A stretch of DNA of 64,000 nucleotides from a virus. The notes below the pieces were generated by a model, which was not told the origin of the DNA, did not search any database, and saw only the letters and a list, made by a program, of their open reading frames with translations. Every line of letters begins with the position of its first letter. Position 1 is the stretch's first letter. The translations under genes and the position numbers were made by a program. Positions 12,134 to 54,860 of this stretch are shown here, piece by piece. Location: positions 12,978-76,977 of IMG/VR virus record IMGVR_UViG_3300028025_006190. One strand, written 5' to 3'.

Positions 12134-15100
12134 TGGCTAGGCAAAATCTACTTACCAACCCCAACTTCTCCCTTAGTACTGGGTGGAGGGGGCGTGAAGG
12201 TGCCACAATCCTCTTTACTCACTTCCTCGGTCGAACCTGCGTAGAGGTGACAAAGAAAGATACCCCCAAATCTGGCGTCGAGACAATTGACTACATTCCT
12301 ATATTACAAAATCCAGCAAATCTTCCATATGCATATTCTGCCTATATCTATATTCCAACAGGTCAGCCCTCAGGAGAGTTTGTTGTCTCTATTGAGTGGT
12401 ACACGTTTAGCTCTGGCACATACACCTCAATCCTAGAGACACAGTCTGATCCAACAGAACTCAGCTCCGGGATTGGTGAGTGGACCAGACTAACTCAGGT
12501 GACTGCAGCACCTAACAACGCGACCCATGCAAAGTTCCGCATCTACCAAACACAGACGGGGACAAATGAAGCAAAGTTCCTAGCGGACTACGCCCTATTT
12601 GAGCAGTCAAGCTTTGTTGGTGGATTTATTGATAATCTTACCCAGGCACAAGAGACGCAGATTGTTGACCGAGCACTTTCGATATATGAAGACGACTCTC
12701 ACATAACTAAATTGCAGCTCAATGCTGATGTTCAGATTGGGGATTTTGTCTTCAATACGATTGATGAAGATCAGATTATCTGGATTTGCACAGACATTGA
12801 GGGATGGTGGAATACTGCCACACCCGAGACACCCAACATTCCTCGAGGTTTCCAAGACGGATCTTACGACGTATCCGGGAGATACGCTGCAAGAGATCTC
12901 ACTCTAACGGGAGTATTCATTCCACAAGGGCCAGGCGATGTGGGAGTTGGACGACAGAAACTGTTGGCGGCAATTGATCTAGTTCGTCAAGGTGCTTGGC
13001 TGCGGACAAGTGAGGAGCCAACAAGAGCATCTTTTGTTCGCCTCACCGGTAGACCGCAAATTCAGACAGTAAATGCTCGAGGCCGAACAGAGTTCTCGAT
13101 TGCTCTTCGTGCGGGTGACCCAATTAAATACAAGTGGGATGACACCAAAATTGATGGAATTAGTTCTCAAGAAATAGATCTTGCGTCGGAAGCTCCAGAC
13201 GATTTTGGAACTTTGAGCATCATCAATGAAGGCGATGCTACGGTAACGGCAAAGCTAATTTTTACCGGCCCGCTAGGTTCTGGGTCTACTGTAGAGGTCT
13301 ATCACGAAAACAGTGGTACAACTGAGGTGATGACACTCATCGAGCCTCTCCGCAGTAACGGTGCCGTCGCTACAGTGACTGACGTCGAGATCACAAACAA
13401 TGTTGCTCTTGTTACTACAGAAGAAGCTCACGGTCTATCTATTGGTGAGGTTGTGTCTATTGTTTCTACAATAAATGACGATGTTAACGTCAGTTCAGCC
13501 ACAATTTCTTCAGTTACGGACACACTTCCATACACTCTGAGCTACACAATCACACATCCCGTCGATGACTTCCCCAAAGAAACTTCTGGCGGGACCGTTA
13601 ATCTAGTATCAAAAGACGTGATGGTAGTGGACAACTACCACAGAAATGTCACACTAAATGGCGATGAAACAGGCTACAGATCAAAGCTAGATACTTTGAC
13701 TGATTGGATAACACTCGAGCCTGGTCTAAATACTTTTACCTTCACTGACAGTATTGATCCGGATTCTGTAAGACTTAAATACTATGACGGAACTACAAAT
13801 AAAATTACGCTAACAACAACAGATTCTCATTTTCTTACTCAAAATAATGTTATATCTATTGAGTTTCCTACATATGCAGAAATTGCATTTAAAGAAGTTA
13901 CTAGCAATATAGTCACTATTACCACAGCTAACTCACACGGATTTTCTGTCGGAGATCAAATAGAGGTGAGTACAACCCTAAGTACCACCGTCACACAAAA
14001 AGAGATAACTTCTAATACTGCCACCCTTACCGTGGCAGATGGCTCAGCAATTTCTGACAATGATGTTGTCTCTGTGTCGATCCCTGCTACTGCTCAGGTT
14101 ATAGCAAAGAGTCGTTCGGGGGACTTGATAACTCTTACTACCTCAAATGCCGCCACTGGCCACGGATTCTCCAATGGAGACGAGGTGACAGTTGGATTCC
14201 CGCTAAGTGCACTAGCGACAAATAAGCAACTTATTGACAATGTGGCAACTATTACTACGGCCCAGAACCATAACTTTGTGCTGAATGATGAAATAAATGT
14301 AGCATTTCCGGAGACAACCAGTGTCAACCAGAAAACTGTATCTGACACCCAGGTAACCCTCAGGACCGCCACGGATCATGGGTTTTCTGTGGGGGACAGA
14401 ATCACTGTTGCACTCCCCACGGGATCAGCGGTCACACTAAGTGACTCTAGAAAATATGGTGGTGCAGCATATCTAGGTGTGACGTTTATACAGTCCTCGG
14501 GTGTAACTAGAACTCTAACTACAACTGATCCCCACAACTTTGCAGCAGGAGATCAAATTTACGTTGCAAGTATAAATACCGACTACAACGGAACACACAC
14601 CATCATCAATACCCCCACCACCACGACACTTACATATGATGTGACTGGTGGAACTTCTATAACTAATGCGTCACCGATCTCCACTGACGGAATAGGTACC
14701 GTAACAAACACCACTACGAGCTACCGAGTAACACTCAATACCGCAGCAGCACACAACTTTTCAGTTGGAGACTCGATCTTGGTGGGTGTTGGACTCCCGA
14801 CTACAGCCACTATAACCAACAGACTAGCCAGCTCTACTGAGTGCACACTCACATCAGCTGCGCACAAATACAGCGTTGGTGAAGTGATCACTGTGGCCCT
14901 GACGGGTTCTGGTGTAGATAGGTACAACGGAACATTTGCTATCTCTGCTGTGGCCACCGACACGTTTACTTATGTGTTTGCTGGAGCTAGTGAATCATCT
15001 ATCGCGGCCACTGGCTCGGTAACTAACTTGACGATCCAAAATATCTACAATGGAACAAAAGTTATTGATACGGTCCCGACTAATAGTTCTTTCACCTATT

Positions 15101-45799: not shown

Positions 45800-45870
45800 G
45801 TCGCTCAAGTGTTACGGTAGCACGACGGTCTCCAAAACCGTGAGACTAGGTTCAATTCCTAGGAGCGGCG
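45800..45870 (+). tRNA. tRNA-Trp(CCA)
   Basis: Acceptor GTCGCTC/GAGCGGC; anticodon arm ACGGT-CTCCAAA-ACCGT; T-arm CTAGG-TTCAATT-CCTAG. Confidence 0.88.
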
Positions 45871-45915
45871 CAATTTGACTACATTGTTTCTAAATTTGTG
45901 CTAAAGTATTTATAA

Positions 45916-46085
45916 CGCAAGATCGACGGATCAAGCGGAGTGATGGCTGAATGTGTCTTTCCAGTAAGGACCTAAAGCACACCTCGGGTTAGCGCCCTGC
46001 CTTAGCGGGTAAAAGAGGTGGTCGGGTGCGGTACATACTGTATTGCTGGGACCCCGTGGTGGTAAAACGCAATCCACCCACTCAA
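45916..46085 (+). ncRNA. Candidate structured ncRNA of about 170 nt
   Basis: Extended -10 upstream, terminator downstream, multiple nested helices and no credible ORF. Confidence 0.55.
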
Positions 46086-46087
46086 CT

Positions 46088-46123
46088 AAAAACCCCCGGG
46101 ATCTTTTCCTCCGGGGGTTTTTT
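46088..46123 (+). terminator. Intrinsic terminator
   Basis: AAAAACCCCCGG/CCGGGGGTTTTTT. Confidence 0.8.
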
Positions 46124-46145
46124 ATGTGTGTTACTGTTTACAGAA

Positions 46146-46219
46146 CGGGATGTAGCTCAGCTTGGTAGAGCGCTGCGTTTGGGACGCAGAAGTCGCAGGT
46201 TCAAATCCTGTCGTCCCGA
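46146..46219 (+). tRNA. tRNA-Pro(TGG)
   Basis: Canonical cloverleaf; anticodon arm CTGCG-TTTGGGA-CGCAG. Confidence 0.95.
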
Positions 46220-46220
46220 C

Positions 46221-46296
46221 GGCGGTGTAGCCCAATGGCAGAGGCACACGGTTTAGGTCCGTGCCAGTGTGAGTTCGAATCTCATCACCGCTACCA
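46221..46296 (+). tRNA. tRNA-Leu(TAG) with short variable loop and encoded CCA
   Basis: CACGG-TTTAGGT-CCGTG anticodon arm; GTTCGAATC T-loop; ends ACCA. Confidence 0.9.
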
Positions 46297-46485: not shown

Positions 46486-46693
46486 TCCGGTACGCCAACC
46501 ATCTCATTACTTTCACCCAAGTGGTATTGAAGTTATTGAGATCACAAAACACGAGTCTTTCCTCCGGGGGAACATCATCAAATACATTCTCCGTGCCCCA
46601 TTTAAGGGCAGAGAGTTAGAAGATTTACGTAAAGCTCAGATGTATCTTGAGTGGGAAATTGCCAGAGTTGAAAAGGAAATAGAAGACAAGTGA
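46475..46693 (+). CDS. DUF3310-like protein (T7 gp1.7-type putative nucleotide kinase)
   Basis: DPV..PSHY...IEVI...GNIIKYILRA..KG..EDLRKA..YL motif. Confidence 0.8.
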   Translation: MTNDPVRQPSHYFHPSGIEVIEITKHESFLRGNIIKYILRAPFKGRELEDLRKAQMYLEWEIARVEKEIEDK

Positions 46694-47388
46694 TTTTTAC
46701 CAGTGAACTAGAAGTAGAGCTTGTTCAATACTCCGGAAGCGATAAAATAATTGCAGATGCTGCTCGAGTATCTACTGGCGCTGTGGCCGATGCATACACT
46801 GAAGAAGAGAATGCCAAACTACTTGGGTATCTTGTAAAGAATCGCCACGGCTCACCCTTTGAGCACAACTCGATGACCTTCAAGATCTCTGCTCCTATAT
46901 TTGTATTCCGTGAGTTCCAACGTCACCGTATTGGCTGGTCCTATAACGAGGTCTCTGCGCGATACAAAGAGATGGATCCGGTTTTCTATGCGTACCCACC
47001 AACGAGGCCTCTAGTCCAGGAAGGATCCTCTGCCCATCCGAAGCTTGTTGACGGGCACCCGTCTATGACTACGATGGTAAATCACGAAATGATGACTGCA
47101 TACTCTCACTCCTGGGGGATCTACAAAGCTCTTCTGCGTGAGGGTGCTGCTAACGAAGTTGCTCGATCTGTGCTCCCTGTTGGTCTCTACAGTCAGATGT
47201 ATGCGACATGCAATGCTCGAAGCTTGATGGCATTCCTGTCATTACGAGTTGATGCTGAGAACGCCCAGTTTGAGACCAAGCCCCAGTGGGAGATCGAACA
47301 GGTCGCTCGCAAGATGGAAGAGTACTTTTCTCTAATGTTCCCGGACACACACTACTTTTTTAACAAGAATGGTAGAATTGCTCCATAG
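46690..47388 (+). CDS. thyX: Flavin-dependent thymidylate synthase
   Basis: HGSPFEH, RHRIGWSYNEVSARY, EVARSVLP and QWEI motifs. Confidence 0.95.
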   Translation: MIFTSELEVELVQYSGSDKIIADAARVSTGAVADAYTEEENAKLLGYLVKNRHGSPFEHNSMTFKISAPIFVFREFQRHRIGWSYNEVSARYKEMDPVFYAYPPTRPLVQEGSSAHPKLVDGHPSMTTMVNHEMMTAYSHSWGIYKALLREGAANEVARSVLPVGLYSQMYATCNARSLMAFLSLRVDAENAQFETKPQWEIEQVARKMEEYFSLMFPDTHYFFNKNGRIAP

Positions 47389-47453: not shown

Positions 47454-47526
47454 GCCTCCTTAGCTCAGTTGGTAGAGCGCGATACTTGTAATATCGATGT
47501 CATCGGTTCGATTCCGGTAGGGGGCC
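47454..47526 (+). tRNA. tRNA-Thr(TGT)
   Basis: CGATA-CTTGTAA-TATCG anticodon arm; GGTTCGATTCC T-arm. Confidence 0.92.
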
Positions 47527-47530
47527 CAGA

Positions 47531-47602
47531 CCCCTCGTAGCTCAGCGGAAGAGCGTATGGTTTCTACCCATCCGGCCGGGAGTTCGAATCTCTCCGAGGG
47601 GA
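47531..47602 (+). tRNA. tRNA-Arg(TCT)
   Basis: CCCCTCG/CGAGGGG acceptor; ATGG-TTTCTAC-CCAT anticodon arm. Confidence 0.88.
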
Positions 47603-47605
47603 CAC

Positions 47606-47679
47606 CGGGAGTTAGCTCAGCCGGTTAGAGCAGCGGACTCATAATCCGTCGGTCGCGGGTTCAAGTCCCGCACTCCTGA
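47606..47679 (+). tRNA. tRNA-Met(CAT), probably elongator (Ile2 not excluded)
   Basis: GCGGA-CTCATAA-TCCGT anticodon arm; GGTTCAAGTCC T-arm. Confidence 0.9.
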
Positions 47680-47681
47680 CA

Positions 47682-47723
47682 ACACAAAACCCCCTGGCCG
47701 ATATATGCCGGGGGGTTTGGTGT
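47682..47723. terminator. Hairpin closing the tRNA cluster
   Basis: ACACAAAACCCCCTGGC/GCCGGGGGGTTTGGTGT. Confidence 0.55.
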
Positions 47724-47726
47724 CAG

Positions 47727-48008
47727 ATTCTGGATCACCGCCTATGTAGTTGCCAGTTAACCTTTCGTTGGGTGAGTTTGAACATTGGAATCATTCAGCT
47801 CCTAACTGGCCTCGCGGCCATCTCATACAAGATACTTCTATTTTAGAAGCTATTAAACTGTTCTAGATCTTCTACTGTGACGATGAGATCCCGGTGATTT
47901 AGAATAGAAGTAGCCAAGGCGCAGCTCCCCTGCTGCCCGGCATTGTGAATTTCGCTACCTCACAAAAGCTAAGCCCCCTCTTGAAAATATATTGGAGGGG
48001 GTTTAGTG
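47727..48008. ncRNA. Candidate multibranch structured RNA of about 280 nt
   Basis: 14-bp closing stem, internal nested stems, further hairpins and no ORF. Confidence 0.45.
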
Positions 48009-48029
48009 TTACTAAATCTATATGAGAAG

Positions 48030-48059
48030 TTGGCAGTATATAATAACAATTTTTATAAT
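48030..48059 (+). promoter_or_regulatory. Sigma70/SigA-like promoter upstream of the RNR-tail peptide
   Basis: TTGGCA-N18-TATAAT. Confidence 0.6.
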
Positions 48060-48163
48060 AGCTCGCAAGATTTTACGAGGTGCTACACTAGATAAAACCC
48101 AATAAATATCAGCAAAATGGCCAAGTTTCCTTGGTCAATTTTCATCTCACCTGGAGGTCATAT

Positions 48164-48247
48164 ATGAACGAAAAAATAACAACCCTTGGCGAATACCAGG
48201 TCCCAATCGACCCGATGGATGAGTTCCAGTGCGAGGGGTGCCAATAG
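48164..48247 (+). CDS. 27-aa peptide resembling the RNR-alpha C-terminal redox tail (CxxCQ-stop); not in ORF track
   Basis: GGAGG RBS 6 nt before ATG. MNEKITTLGEYQVPIDPMDEFQCEGCQ. Confidence 0.75.
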   Translation: MNEKITTLGEYQVPIDPMDEFQCEGCQ

Positions 48248-48334
48248 GCACGACCCCGAAACGGGTCCGGCCCGGTGCTCCTCGATCGTTGCTAGAGTCG
48301 AGCGCCGGGCCAACTAATCTTATAAAATGACTAT

Positions 48335-49285
48335 ATGACAGGCGTAACTCCGGAGACCTTAGTTCTTACTTCTGAAGGTTATCGGGAGATTTTATCACTA
48401 ACTGGTTCTCCATTTTTAGTGTGGAATGGCGGGGAATACACTCCAGCAGTTGCGCAAAAACTAGCTGAACAACAAAAAGTTATTCGGATAGAGCTTGTTT
48501 CTGGTACTGAAATTGAGTGTGCAGCAGACTTTGAATTTCGGATCCAACGTGACTACTACGTCACTGCAGTGCATAACCAGGAAGCGAGATACCTGGCTCC
48601 CGGTGATCGACTCATCAAGGGTTGGTATCCAGTAGTTCCGGGTGGGGCTGAAGAGTTTCCCTACTCATATACACACGGCTACTACTCCGGAGCTGAGAAG
48701 TTTCGACTGGGAGACAAAGTTCTTGCAAGATCTGCAGTCTACGGAGTTAGGCGGCAGTCTCTACAACTTCTACAACTAAATACAGAACTAGATCAAAAAA
48801 GAAGTCTTAAGTTTTTAGACAGTATGCCTGAAGACTATGAAATCCCCCTCGATTTTAGATACTCACTCGAGACAAAGCTGGAGTGGCTAGCTGGACTTTT
48901 TGATTCTGGTCTTATCAAAAGAAAAGTGGGAATCAGGCCGATCTGGGATATTTACTCAGAAAATTATGACTTCCTAAAAAGACTGAAACTATTCAGTCAT
49001 ACGCTTGGCGGAGACGCTCGAGTAATAAAAAATAGTGATCTTGGAAGAGCTCACTACACTTTTCGTTTGGCCAATACGTGGGTGCAGAACCTAAGAAAAA
49101 TGAATATCCCCGTAGTTAACCACTCGTTCCCCGAGATCAACTACACCAGAAGAAGCATTGATTATCCGAAGATAGCTCAAGTAATTGATGACTACAGATA
49201 CTCAGACATATACAACATCACACAAGAAAACAAAGACACGGTTGTCCTCAACGGCATCCTTGTTCCAAACAACTCAGAAAGGTAA
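48335..49285 (+). CDS. Free-standing degenerate intein (HINT + LAGLIDADG-like), leaderless
   Basis: GVTPETLVLTSEG (block A lacking Cys), LAPGDRL, WLAGLFDS and IYNI...VLNGILVPN (blocks F/G). TAAAAT-N6-ATG. Confidence 0.75.
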   Translation: MTGVTPETLVLTSEGYREILSLTGSPFLVWNGGEYTPAVAQKLAEQQKVIRIELVSGTEIECAADFEFRIQRDYYVTAVHNQEARYLAPGDRLIKGWYPVVPGGAEEFPYSYTHGYYSGAEKFRLGDKVLARSAVYGVRRQSLQLLQLNTELDQKRSLKFLDSMPEDYEIPLDFRYSLETKLEWLAGLFDSGLIKRKVGIRPIWDIYSENYDFLKRLKLFSHTLGGDARVIKNSDLGRAHYTFRLANTWVQNLRKMNIPVVNHSFPEINYTRRSIDYPKIAQVIDDYRYSDIYNITQENKDTVVLNGILVPNNSER

Positions 49286-49289
49286 CACC

Positions 49290-50279
49290 ATGGGAATCCT
49301 CGGAAAAGGAATCCAGGAGGGCCTCCTCCTCAAGCCAGTCAAATACCAGTGGGCAATGGATCTGTACGACCAGGCCGTAGCGAACACGTGGTTCCCTAAC
49401 GAAATTCAGCTCGGAGAAGATATTGCCGACTTCAAGAAGATGTCTGAGGAAGAGCAGCACGCCATCACATTCTTGATGTCGTTCTTTAACCCCTCGGAGC
49501 TGATTGTAAACAAGGCTCTTGCCTTTGGCGTGTACCCATATCTGAACGCACCCGAGTGCCACCTGTACCTCGCGAAGCAGATGTGGGAAGAAGCAAACCA
49601 CTGCATGTCGTTCGAGTACGTTCTCGAAACCTTCCCCGTTGATCGCGCAGAAATCTACAACCAACACGTCTCGGTTCCCAGCATCAAAGCCAAGGAAGAC
49701 TTTGAGGTCAAGTTCATCACGCGCATGACCGAAGAGACTCTTGACATTGAGACCGTAGAAGGCAAGCAGGACTTCGTCCGTAACCTTGTCGCTTACTCGG
49801 TCATCATGGAGGGCATCTGGTTCTACTCGGGCTTCATGGTGGCGCTCAGCTTCCGCCAGCGCAACCTGCTGCGTAACTTTGGTTCGCTCGTTGACTGGAT
49901 TGTTCGTGACGAGAGTCTGCACCTCAAGTTTGGTGTCAACCTTGTTGTGACCATCCTGGACGAGAACCCCGACATCGTGACTGAAGAATTTGCTGCTGAG
50001 ATCAAGCAAATGATTTTGGACGCTGTCGACATGGAGACGGCGTACAACAAGGATCAGTTCCCCAATGGAATCCTCGGTCTAAATGCTGACTACGCTACGC
50101 AGTACACCAAGTACCTTGCAGACCGTCGTCTTGAGGAGCTCGGCTTTGGCCCGCACTACAACGTGACAAACCCCGCAAAGTGGATGGCAGCAGCCAACGA
50201 TACTTTGCAGTTGGTCAACTTCTTTGAATCAACAAACACTTCTTACGAAGTTAACGCTACATCATCTAGCAAGCACTAG
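49290..50279 (+). CDS. nrdB: Ribonucleotide reductase beta subunit, class Ic-like
   Basis: WFPNEI, SELIV, EEANHCMSF, EGIWFYSGF, RDESLH and NFFE motifs. Confidence 0.92.
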   Translation: MGILGKGIQEGLLLKPVKYQWAMDLYDQAVANTWFPNEIQLGEDIADFKKMSEEEQHAITFLMSFFNPSELIVNKALAFGVYPYLNAPECHLYLAKQMWEEANHCMSFEYVLETFPVDRAEIYNQHVSVPSIKAKEDFEVKFITRMTEETLDIETVEGKQDFVRNLVAYSVIMEGIWFYSGFMVALSFRQRNLLRNFGSLVDWIVRDESLHLKFGVNLVVTILDENPDIVTEEFAAEIKQMILDAVDMETAYNKDQFPNGILGLNADYATQYTKYLADRRLEELGFGPHYNVTNPAKWMAAANDTLQLVNFFESTNTSYEVNATSSSKH

Positions 50280-52206: not shown

Positions 52207-52527
52207 ATGAGTAAAGTTCAAGATCTAACTGAGGAAACATTTAAATCAGATGTCCTAGAAGGCTCTGGGCCGGCTCTCGTGGAGTTTTGGGGGTCCTGGT
52301 GCAGTTCATGTAAGGCTATGTTTCCAGTCCTAGACGAACTCTCGGAGGCGCAGGATAAGCTGAAAATCACCAAACTAAGTGTGGAAGATGCGCCAGAAGT
52401 GGCTAGGAGCTATGGGGTTACAAGCATCCCCGCGATGTTGGTTTTCGAAAATGGAGTAGTAGTTCAGACAATTGTTGGTGCAAAAACATATGAGAAGTTG
52501 TCTGAAGAACTAAAAGATTTTATTTAA
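52207..52527 (+). CDS. trxA: Thioredoxin with WCSSC active site
   Basis: LVEFWGSWCSSCK and SIPAM motifs; 106 aa. Confidence 0.88.
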   Translation: MSKVQDLTEETFKSDVLEGSGPALVEFWGSWCSSCKAMFPVLDELSEAQDKLKITKLSVEDAPEVARSYGVTSIPAMLVFENGVVVQTIVGAKTYEKLSEELKDFI

Positions 52528-54581: not shown

Positions 54582-54860
54582 ATGACAAACTACATGGAAA
54601 TGCCAGATTTTTTTAATAAAGAAAAGGGCGCTACACCGTGCTCCGAGGCTGATCCAGATGGTTTTTTTCCAGAACAAGGTGAGCAACACCTAGGAAGACT
54701 TGCAAAAAAGATATGTAAAACATGCCCGTATCAACCTGAGTGCCTAGACTGGGCACTTAAGAATGACGAAGAGATTGGTATCTGGGGCGGCTCCTCGGAA
54801 CAAGAAAGAAGACAGATTCGAACTGGGAAGCTGAAAAAAGAAGATCTATCGTTTTCCTAG
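54582..54860 (+). CDS. whiB: WhiB-family transcription factor (leaderless)
   Basis: CSEADPDGFFP...AKKICKTCPYQPECL.WAL...GIWGG. Promoter TTGCTT-N17-TAGACT-N6-ATG. Confidence 0.92.
   Translation: MTNYMEMPDFFNKEKGATPCSEADPDGFFPEQGEQHLGRLAKKICKTCPYQPECLDWALKNDEEIGIWGGSSEQERRQIRTGKLKKEDLSFS

Follow-up and report, generated by a model that had tools for sequence, protein, structure and literature searches.

The locus

The DNA analysed here, which we call the window, is a stretch of 64,000 nucleotides from a 76,977 bp IMG/VR viral contig that is estimated to be about 45% complete. Within it we found a very short ORF with its expression signals, followed by an intein-derived ORF, by the gene of the small subunit of class I ribonucleotide reductase (RNR) and, further downstream, by a thioredoxin gene. 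The features are the following:

48030..48059, plus strand: putative sigma-70-like promoter, found by consensus match, with TTGGCA (48030-48035), an 18-nt spacer and TATAAT (48054-48059)
48118..48137, plus strand: small terminator-like hairpin and then the T-run ATTTTCATCT, in the 5' leader between promoter and Shine-Dalgarno sequence (terminator scan; 8-pair stem, 4 G-C)
48153..48157, plus strand: Shine-Dalgarno sequence GGAGG, read directly, with the ATG 6 nt downstream
48164..48247, plus strand: micro-ORF, ATG at 48164 and TAG ending at 48247, translation MNEKITTLGEYQVPIDPMDEFQCEGCQ; proposed 27-aa detached redox-tail peptide of RNR alpha
48252..48311, plus strand: G+C-rich double hairpin, without U-tract, directly 3' of the micro-ORF stop (folding)
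48335..49285, plus strand: free-standing intein-derived ORF of 316 aa, Hint and LAGLIDADG-like, by similarity to the nrdA intein of the viral contig L060
49290..50279, plus strand: nrdB, class I RNR small (radical-generating) subunit (PF00268, E 7e-76)
52207..52527, plus strand: thioredoxin (PF00085, E 4e-24), with active-site motif WCSSC in the translation, about 2 kb downstream of nrdB

The 27-aa peptide reads as acidic, with six acidic residues and one basic residue; it ends in QCEGCQ and its Cys pair falls within the last ~10 residues. From the conservation of the family and the homology to fused NrdA tails, both described below, its key residues are Y11, V13, P14, D16-P17-M18-D19 and C23-x-x-C26-Q27-stop. 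The sequence-only reading of this DNA had pointed to a free-standing ORF with a GGAGG ribosome-binding site and a TTGGCA-N18-TATAAT promoter, located about 1 kb upstream of nrdB. Direct reading of the sequence and a promoter scan bear this out, and the nrdB start at 49290 is 1043 nt past the peptide stop. The candidate promoter matches 11 of the 12 consensus positions and is the top one of three promoter-like sites in 47650-48400, where shuffles average 1.0.

Regarding the hairpins, the one in the leader could act as an attenuator or mark where the upstream tRNA transcript ends. The double hairpin behind the stop has an MFE of -42 kcal/mol (z -4.85), and none of 200 shuffles equalled its folding; according to this folding model it is a probable terminator, attenuator or RNA stabiliser. 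Hairpins are also found 3' of the homologous micro-ORFs in the phages CMP1, CN1A and phiPsal1, in the viral contig L075 and in Leifsonia. The box scan gave no NrdR-like box at 12/16 or better upstream of the window micro-ORF, and a half-site seen by eye near 48086, ACACTAGAT, was discounted as such a box.

No RNR alpha gene was found in the 77-kb record. The window NrdB is 91% identical to the NrdB of L075 and 81% identical to that of Leifsonia poae, whose partner NrdA is tail-less. Canonical thioredoxins have the active-site motif WCGPC; by its sequence and position the phage thioredoxin at 52207-52527 may be a candidate, perhaps dedicated, reductant of the tail peptide. Two clusters of three tRNA genes, at 45800-46296 (Trp, Pro, Leu) and 47454-47680 (Thr, Arg, Met), lie on either side of thyX (46690-47388), and this tRNA/thyX block sits just upstream of the peptide promoter. 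There is also a 92-aa ORF at 54582-54860 (plus strand) that looks WhiB-like by eye (C..C...C pattern, GIWGG), consistent with an actinobacterial host. Thus ThyX, six tRNA genes, thioredoxin and the WhiB-like gene nearby give this DNA the appearance of a phage of Actinobacteria. The host family is likely Microbacteriaceae, which we deduce only from the similarity of NrdB and the distribution of the micro-protein family. A blastn search of the 2.9-kb region against phage records gave matches confined to the tRNA genes.

A family of unannotated micro-proteins

The peptide belongs to a family with the motif (Y/F)xVPxDPMDxxxCxxCQ-stop. We searched with a degenerate DNA pattern encoding DPMDxxxCxxCQ-stop, for which ~0.2 chance matches are estimated in the viral collection. 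Matches came from at least 119 viral contigs and, in bacterial genomes, from at least 120 loci, almost all of the latter in Microbacteriaceae and a few in Saccharibacteria, and the reversed pattern, taken as a control, had 0 matches in 41 Microbacteriaceae genomes. Among the matches listed, nearly all are short ORFs, with a median of 25 aa in viruses and 27 aa in genomes.

Furthermore, tblastn against phage genomes revealed unannotated homologues in three cultured phages: the Clavibacter phages CMP1 (MGDGEYTVPQDPMDEFQCDSCQ) and CN1A (MNNDNEYTVPIDPMDELICEGCQ) and the Pontimonas phage phiPsal1. These copies lie, with their downstream hairpins, in gaps after a holin gene (CMP1 and phiPsal1) or another late gene. 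Neither the window peptide nor its host, longer or extended forms have a match in Pfam, NCBIfam or PHROGs.

Homology to the C-terminal tail of NrdA

The Cys pair in the tail of class I alpha subunits is C754/C759 in E. coli NrdA, and it takes the form CxxC in eukaryotic R1 and in most NrdA/NrdE proteins. Through this C-terminal tail, electrons pass from thioredoxin or glutaredoxin to the disulfide of the active site (Burnim et al., bioRxiv 10.1101/2022.04.23.489257). The sequence-only reading had noticed that the peptide resembles this tail. Three sequence comparisons support the view that the resemblance is true homology, with the same motif terminating both fused Saccharibacteria NrdAs and the nearest NrdA representatives:

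i) Fused tails in Saccharibacteria. At three low-G+C Saccharibacteria loci (L135/L248, L205/L246 and L213) DPMDxxxCxxCQ-stop is the C-terminus of a class I NrdA. These fused proteins are full-length, with ATP-cone, all-alpha (lgN) and barrel domains.

ii) Endings of NrdA in general. We surveyed the best 150 NrdA representatives from 1.8 billion proteins, 116 of which had a readable C-terminus. At least two tail Cys were present in 109 of these 116, mostly as CE(A/S)CQ-stop, and no ending is commoner than CExCQ-stop in the representatives examined.

iii) Closest relatives of the Leifsonia enzyme. These NrdAs end in CP(I/T)DPxxxxxCxSCQ. The closest representative, P0001 (59% identity), ends in CPIDPAERAQCDSCQ and another close relative in CPTDPAERALCESCQ, in the same register as the VPIDPMDEFQCEGCQ of the window peptide.

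The (G)(Y/F)xVP segment is conserved in the free forms and is missing from the fused Saccharibacteria tails. A mimic of the NrdB C-terminal tail, which would bind the beta-tail groove of alpha, was also considered as a reading of the peptide. It was dropped because the fused NrdA tails bear the same motif.

Tail-less NrdAs and peptide genes in the hosts

In order to read the following counts it must be taken into account that they come from 41 related Microbacteriaceae genomes, which are not phylogenetically independent, and therefore the co-occurrences overstate the number of independent events. Fourteen of the genomes are of the NrdA type. Their alpha subunits (14/14) are free of Cys over the last 40 aa and terminate with an Ala/Pro linker and RRGFG(F)GG, and the micro-ORF pattern was found in 13 of the 14, directly after the nrdA stop in 11. 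The lone tail-less genome in which the pattern was not found, G020, is a 0.9 Mb assembly. The looser pattern DPxDxxxCxxCx-stop had no match either in G020 or in two genomes in which no alpha was detected; all three may be incomplete. A further 25 genomes are of the NrdE type (class Ib); none of them has the micro-ORF pattern, and their NrdE tails end in CVSC(M/A)L in the 16 cases inspected (16/16). The earlier expectation that the cognate NrdA would lack its C-terminal Cys was thus confirmed, both for the host-type NrdAs and for the NrdA of phage contig L060, and the micro-ORF co-occurs with those alpha subunits.

Saccharibacteria appear to be a second lineage with a detached tail: genome G004 encodes a free 71-aa form (L138) as well as an NrdA that stops early, without tail Cys (L249).

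In Leifsonia poae (L243) the peptide gene starts within the sequence TAATG that also contains the nrdA stop, and nrdB begins 52 nt after the peptide gene. A TAATG overlap in different frames is the usual arrangement for termination-reinitiation, and from its sequence we regard the host peptide as translationally coupled to nrdA. A fusion of the L. poae peptide to NrdA by frameshifting or readthrough is considered unlikely; the TAATG overlap joins different frames and nothing specific points to frameshifting.

An NrdR-box-like palindrome, for example ACACTACATGTAGTGG, lies ~100 nt upstream of 48 of the 120 genomic copies vs 1 of the 119 viral copies among the matches listed. The stand-alone micro-ORF of L. 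poae and its nrdA have the same layout, that is, a 16-bp box, a 17-bp spacer and a second 16-bp box ending in TATATAGTGG. We presume these boxes to be NrdR operators by their likeness to the published NrdR consensus, and on that reading the stand-alone host copy has putative operators in common with nrdAB and would be co-regulated with it.

Hosts usually hold 2-4 copies of the micro-ORF (G001, G016, G024, G027, G028, G030, G035, G037, G040, G043). One type is coupled behind nrdA and reads EEYYVPVDPMD(D/E)LQCESCQ; the other stands alone with NrdR-like boxes, reads VGGYAVPVDPMDLLQCDSCQ and in L. poae lies beside hadAB-like and murB genes. Further host copies without boxes are probably prophage-borne. 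Leifsonia-like loci were also met under two other names: L133/L245 (NZ_CP194644.1, titled Streptomyces sp. L7) and L194/L247 (a MAG titled Acidobacteria bacterium). Their NrdAs are 85-90% identical to that of L. poae, with a Microbacteriaceae-type micro-ORF and NrdR-like boxes, so the names of these records look wrong or the bins contaminated.

Regarding the ends of the proteins themselves, the tail-less NrdAs finish in (R/K)(R/K)GFG(F)GG, often doubled around an Ala/Pro-rich linker (L243, L244, L245, L247, L254-L270; in L060 at 13240-13317), and the fused Saccharibacteria NrdAs have one KKGFAA-like copy ahead of the linker. Judging by sequence, the motif of the tail-less NrdAs might be a docking element.

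The host data bear directly on an alternative explanation, namely that the micro-ORF encodes an unrelated small CxxC peptide (metal-binding, lysis-associated or a RiPP precursor) whose likeness to RNR is convergent, or which is an add-on that became fused to some NrdAs. Such an origin would suit the copies that follow holins (CMP1, phiPsal1) or terL and the failure to match any functional Pfam, NCBIfam or PHROG family. However, the peptide ends like the canonical NrdA tail and with the same spacing, and the micro-ORF is present where NrdA has no Cys whereas it is absent where NrdE keeps them. Its translational coupling to nrdA, the NrdR-like boxes common to it and nrdAB and the finding of no maturase genes beside the micro-ORF also speak against this explanation, which we consider improbable. 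On the reading as a detached tail, some Microbacteriaceae, some Saccharibacteria and their phages appear to have a class I NrdA without the Cys pair, the pair being carried on a separate peptide of 20-35 aa.

The peptide gene in phages

Two viral contigs place the peptide gene next to RNR genes. In L060 (95 kb) the genes for the peptide, NrdA and NrdB follow in a row; this NrdA contains an intein and ends in PRKGFGFKSAN-stop, with no tail Cys. In L075/G049 (117 kb, with direct terminal repeats), the closest relative of the window that we found, the peptide gene is followed after 72 nt by nrdB, and no RNR alpha was found anywhere in the record. A 9-codon ORF of L075 (L075:3815-3844, MPPKRKGKC) ends in a TAATG that overlaps the micro-ORF start; it may be a chance ORF or an upstream ORF for coupling.

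The complete genomes of CMP1, CN1A and phiPsal1 gave neither RNR alpha nor beta. Among the matches listed, the gene upstream of the micro-ORF in 113 viral loci is the large terminase (terL) in ~30 and a holin in 13, and RNR genes adjoin 2 of the 119 viral copies. Genomic linkage to RNR in phages is therefore weak, many copies following terL or holin genes. The sequence-only reading had suggested looking for such micro-ORFs near nrdA/nrdB; the search did find a conserved family that in 11 of the 14 NrdA-type host genomes lies directly behind nrdA, but among the viral matches listed the neighbourhood of RNR genes is confined to the two copies just mentioned. The presence of the peptide in many phage positions, usually without a phage RNR, fits a product that acts on the host enzyme.

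The same distribution could also be read in the opposite sense, with the phage peptide as a decoy or inhibitor that mimics the host tail and blocks NrdA or soaks up thioredoxin, thus shutting down or re-routing host dNTP synthesis. Most phage copies have no link to a phage RNR, as a decoy would allow, and peptides derived from the tail and from the beta tail are classical RNR inhibitors (general knowledge). Nevertheless, the phage peptides keep both Cys and every conserved position of the host peptide, and the hosts themselves hold at least two copies. Furthermore, the window and L075 pair the peptide with an intact host-like nrdB, and the window also with thioredoxin, which argues for supply and not for blockade. 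We consider a decoy unlikely, and a peptide that serves as a working tail fits these data better. Specific to the window is that the phage copy has a promoter of its own and stands first in a peptide-nrdB unit, which lacks alpha and has received an intein-derived gene.

Conservation of the viral peptides

The 100 distinct viral peptides are strongly conserved at positions left free by the search pattern, as follows, with positions counted from the C-terminus:

-17, Tyr or Phe in 81/100
-15, Val in 77/100
-14, Pro in 100/100
-7, Leu in 86/100
-4, Asp or Glu in 99/100
-3, Ser in 88/100

At the DNA level, Pro -14 is kept in all 110 distinct viral sequences with use of all four of its codons (in 39, 26, 25 and 20 sequences), and Ser -3 is encoded by both TCN and AGY codons. 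The entropy at third codon positions of the viral copies is 2-3 times that of positions 1 and 2. Residues are kept while synonymous codons vary, which indicates, from sequence comparison, that the micro-ORF is translated and under purifying selection.

This coding signature also bears on the possibility that the micro-ORF is an upstream ORF or leader peptide acting in cis, with no role beyond the tuning of nrdB expression through its translation and the hairpin that comes after it. The strong hairpin right after the ORF, the small terminator-like hairpin before it and nrdB downstream are what one would expect of a leader, but it is the amino-acid sequence that is conserved, with free synonymous change, and not the RNA alone, and many copies are in contexts with no RNR gene downstream; this makes a leader very improbable. 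Just as little speaks for a decaying or unexpressed remnant in the window phage: a mobile intein-derived gene has been inserted alongside, yet the start codon, Shine-Dalgarno sequence, promoter and all invariant residues are intact, and a 97%-identical DNA contig from another study has no listed difference within the micro-ORF, though the flanks vary.

Proposed function

We propose that the ORF is probably a phage copy of the detached RNR alpha tail. The phage would supply the tail-less NrdA of its host with additional peptide, along with beta subunit and reductant. The partner alpha is presumed to be the host's, since the 77-kb record, itself only about 45% complete, yielded no alpha. The peptide would be produced from its own promoter and its conserved (Y/F)xVPxDPMD segment would dock on the tail-less NrdA. 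There its CxxC dithiol would reduce the active-site disulfide left in NrdA after each turnover, and the oxidised peptide would be re-reduced by a thioredoxin-type protein, possibly the phage thioredoxin at 52207-52527. In this way the peptide, the phage NrdB and thioredoxin may together raise the RNR capacity of the host, and with it the dNTP supply, during infection.

A complex prediction with residues 95-822 of Leifsonia NrdA and the window peptide gave a score of 0.38, the best of three controls being 0.01, which is a weak pass. Its contacts agree at least 46% between runs and the partner pLDDT is at least 58. The mark for a pass is reached by 58 of 80 solved complexes and by 2 of 110 mismatched pairs; at scores of 0.60 or less it is reached by only 7 of the 80 solved complexes and by both passing mismatches, and the calibration contained no protein shorter than 30 residues and used other alignments.

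The sequence-only reading had offered two options, a three-part RNR or a peptide that boosts or competes with the host alpha. The three-part enzyme describes the system of the hosts and of phage L060. For the window phage a boost to the host alpha fits best, with no alpha in the record and L075 carrying peptide and nrdB alone. More tentatively, and with somewhat less than even chances, the tail peptide might be a truly diffusible, multi-turnover electron carrier that limits dNTP synthesis, by means of which phages would boost or take over the tail-less RNR of the host. If true, this would explain the peptide in many phages that have no RNR of their own. On this tentative reading a gene of 27 codons would act alone or together with nrdB and a phage thioredoxin (WCSSC), and it would be, to our knowledge, the smallest auxiliary metabolic gene.

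Comparison with known systems

In the literature searched we found no description of a detached class I RNR tail, and the nearest precedent is in class II. The known systems with which the peptide can be compared are the following:

i) The covalent tail of class I alpha. Like the window peptide it is an acidic, flexible stretch ending in C-x-x-C-Q-stop, and the same job is presumed. However, the covalent tail is part of alpha, whereas the window peptide is a separate gene with its own ATG, Shine-Dalgarno sequence and candidate promoter, and the free peptide, unlike the covalent tail, is also carried by phages without alpha.

ii) The split class II enzyme NrdJa/NrdJb of Pseudomonas aeruginosa. 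Here catalysis is in the large piece and the redox C-terminal Cys are carried by a second polypeptide, required for thiol-disulfide exchange (Crona et al. 2015, PMC4520616), which makes it the nearest described architecture. NrdJb has predicted IscU-like and zinc-finger domains, and class II sequences without C-terminal Cys may use small-molecule reductants (Burnim et al., bioRxiv 10.1101/2022.04.23.489257). Nevertheless, NrdJb is a folded class II protein in a tight 1:1 complex with NrdJa, whereas the free tail peptides belong to class I, have 22-35 aa and no domain, and are multi-copy and spread by phages. We saw no sequence relation between NrdJb and the window peptide, which has 27 aa, two Cys and no domain match, and the genes associated with the peptide are class I nrdA/nrdB.

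iii) Facklamia ignava, in which a glutaredoxin domain is fused to NrdB (PMC6187632). As with the detached tail the reducing system of RNR is repackaged, but in the opposite way: the external reductant is fused to beta and the alpha tail is still covalent.

iv) Thioredoxin-fold reductants. Thioredoxin, glutaredoxin and NrdH are folded proteins of 75-110 aa with a CxxC at a helix N-terminus, and they reduce the tail. They are small diffusible CxxC carriers that serve RNR, as the free tail peptide would be. The window peptide, however, appears to be the tail itself and not such a redoxin: it has no Pfam match at E 0.01, and a thioredoxin fold is excluded because 27 aa are too short for it.

Textbooks describe the C-terminal Cys tail as part of the catalytic cycle of class I RNR, and it has always been treated as belonging to the large subunit. 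A separate tail peptide would make class I RNR a three-component system of alpha, beta and tail peptide, in which the third component is coupled to nrdA in translation, exists as a second copy under NrdR-like control and has been taken up by many phages. It would also explain genomes whose RNR seems to have no route for re-reduction. This gene family has been systematically missed by annotation pipelines, and it would add an extremely small metabolic gene to many actinobacterial phages, even to those without RNR. Moreover, free peptides can be synthesised, mutated, trapped as mixed disulfides and imaged, which offers a handle on the poorly resolved reach of the tail and its hand-over with thioredoxin, and the cultured phages that carry the peptide (Clavibacter CMP1 and CN1A, Pontimonas phiPsal1) are tractable models.

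The intein-derived ORF

The 316-aa ORF that separates nrdB from the peptide gene does not belong to the redox system. It matches, over its full length and with 36% identity (E 4e-59), the intein inside the nrdA of L060, and it carries the LAGLIDADG-like motif LEWLAGLFDSGL. It has a Gly at the position of the first Cys of the intein, a new ATG, the end PNN-SER-stop and no exteins. A sequence search of the PDB with this ORF gave no significant match. From these sequence features it may be an intein that escaped from its host gene and is now a stand-alone homing-endonuclease gene.

The ORF starts after the hairpin and CCAACTAA, a stretch common to the window and L075. The relative L075 does not have the intein-derived ORF, which is solid evidence for relatives without it, and the layout of the window corresponds to the peptide-nrdB layout of L075 plus an insertion of 1 kb. 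A joint that skips 48223-49328 was also considered as proof of relatives without the ORF and was set aside as too weak; it occurs in one DNA contig in each of two runs, with a short side of only 22-23 letters.

As for the L060 intein itself (L060:11290-12246), it interrupts the catalytic NLC|TEI. Inteins usually end in His-Asn before the +1 residue, and this one ends in Gly-Gln before a +1 Cys.
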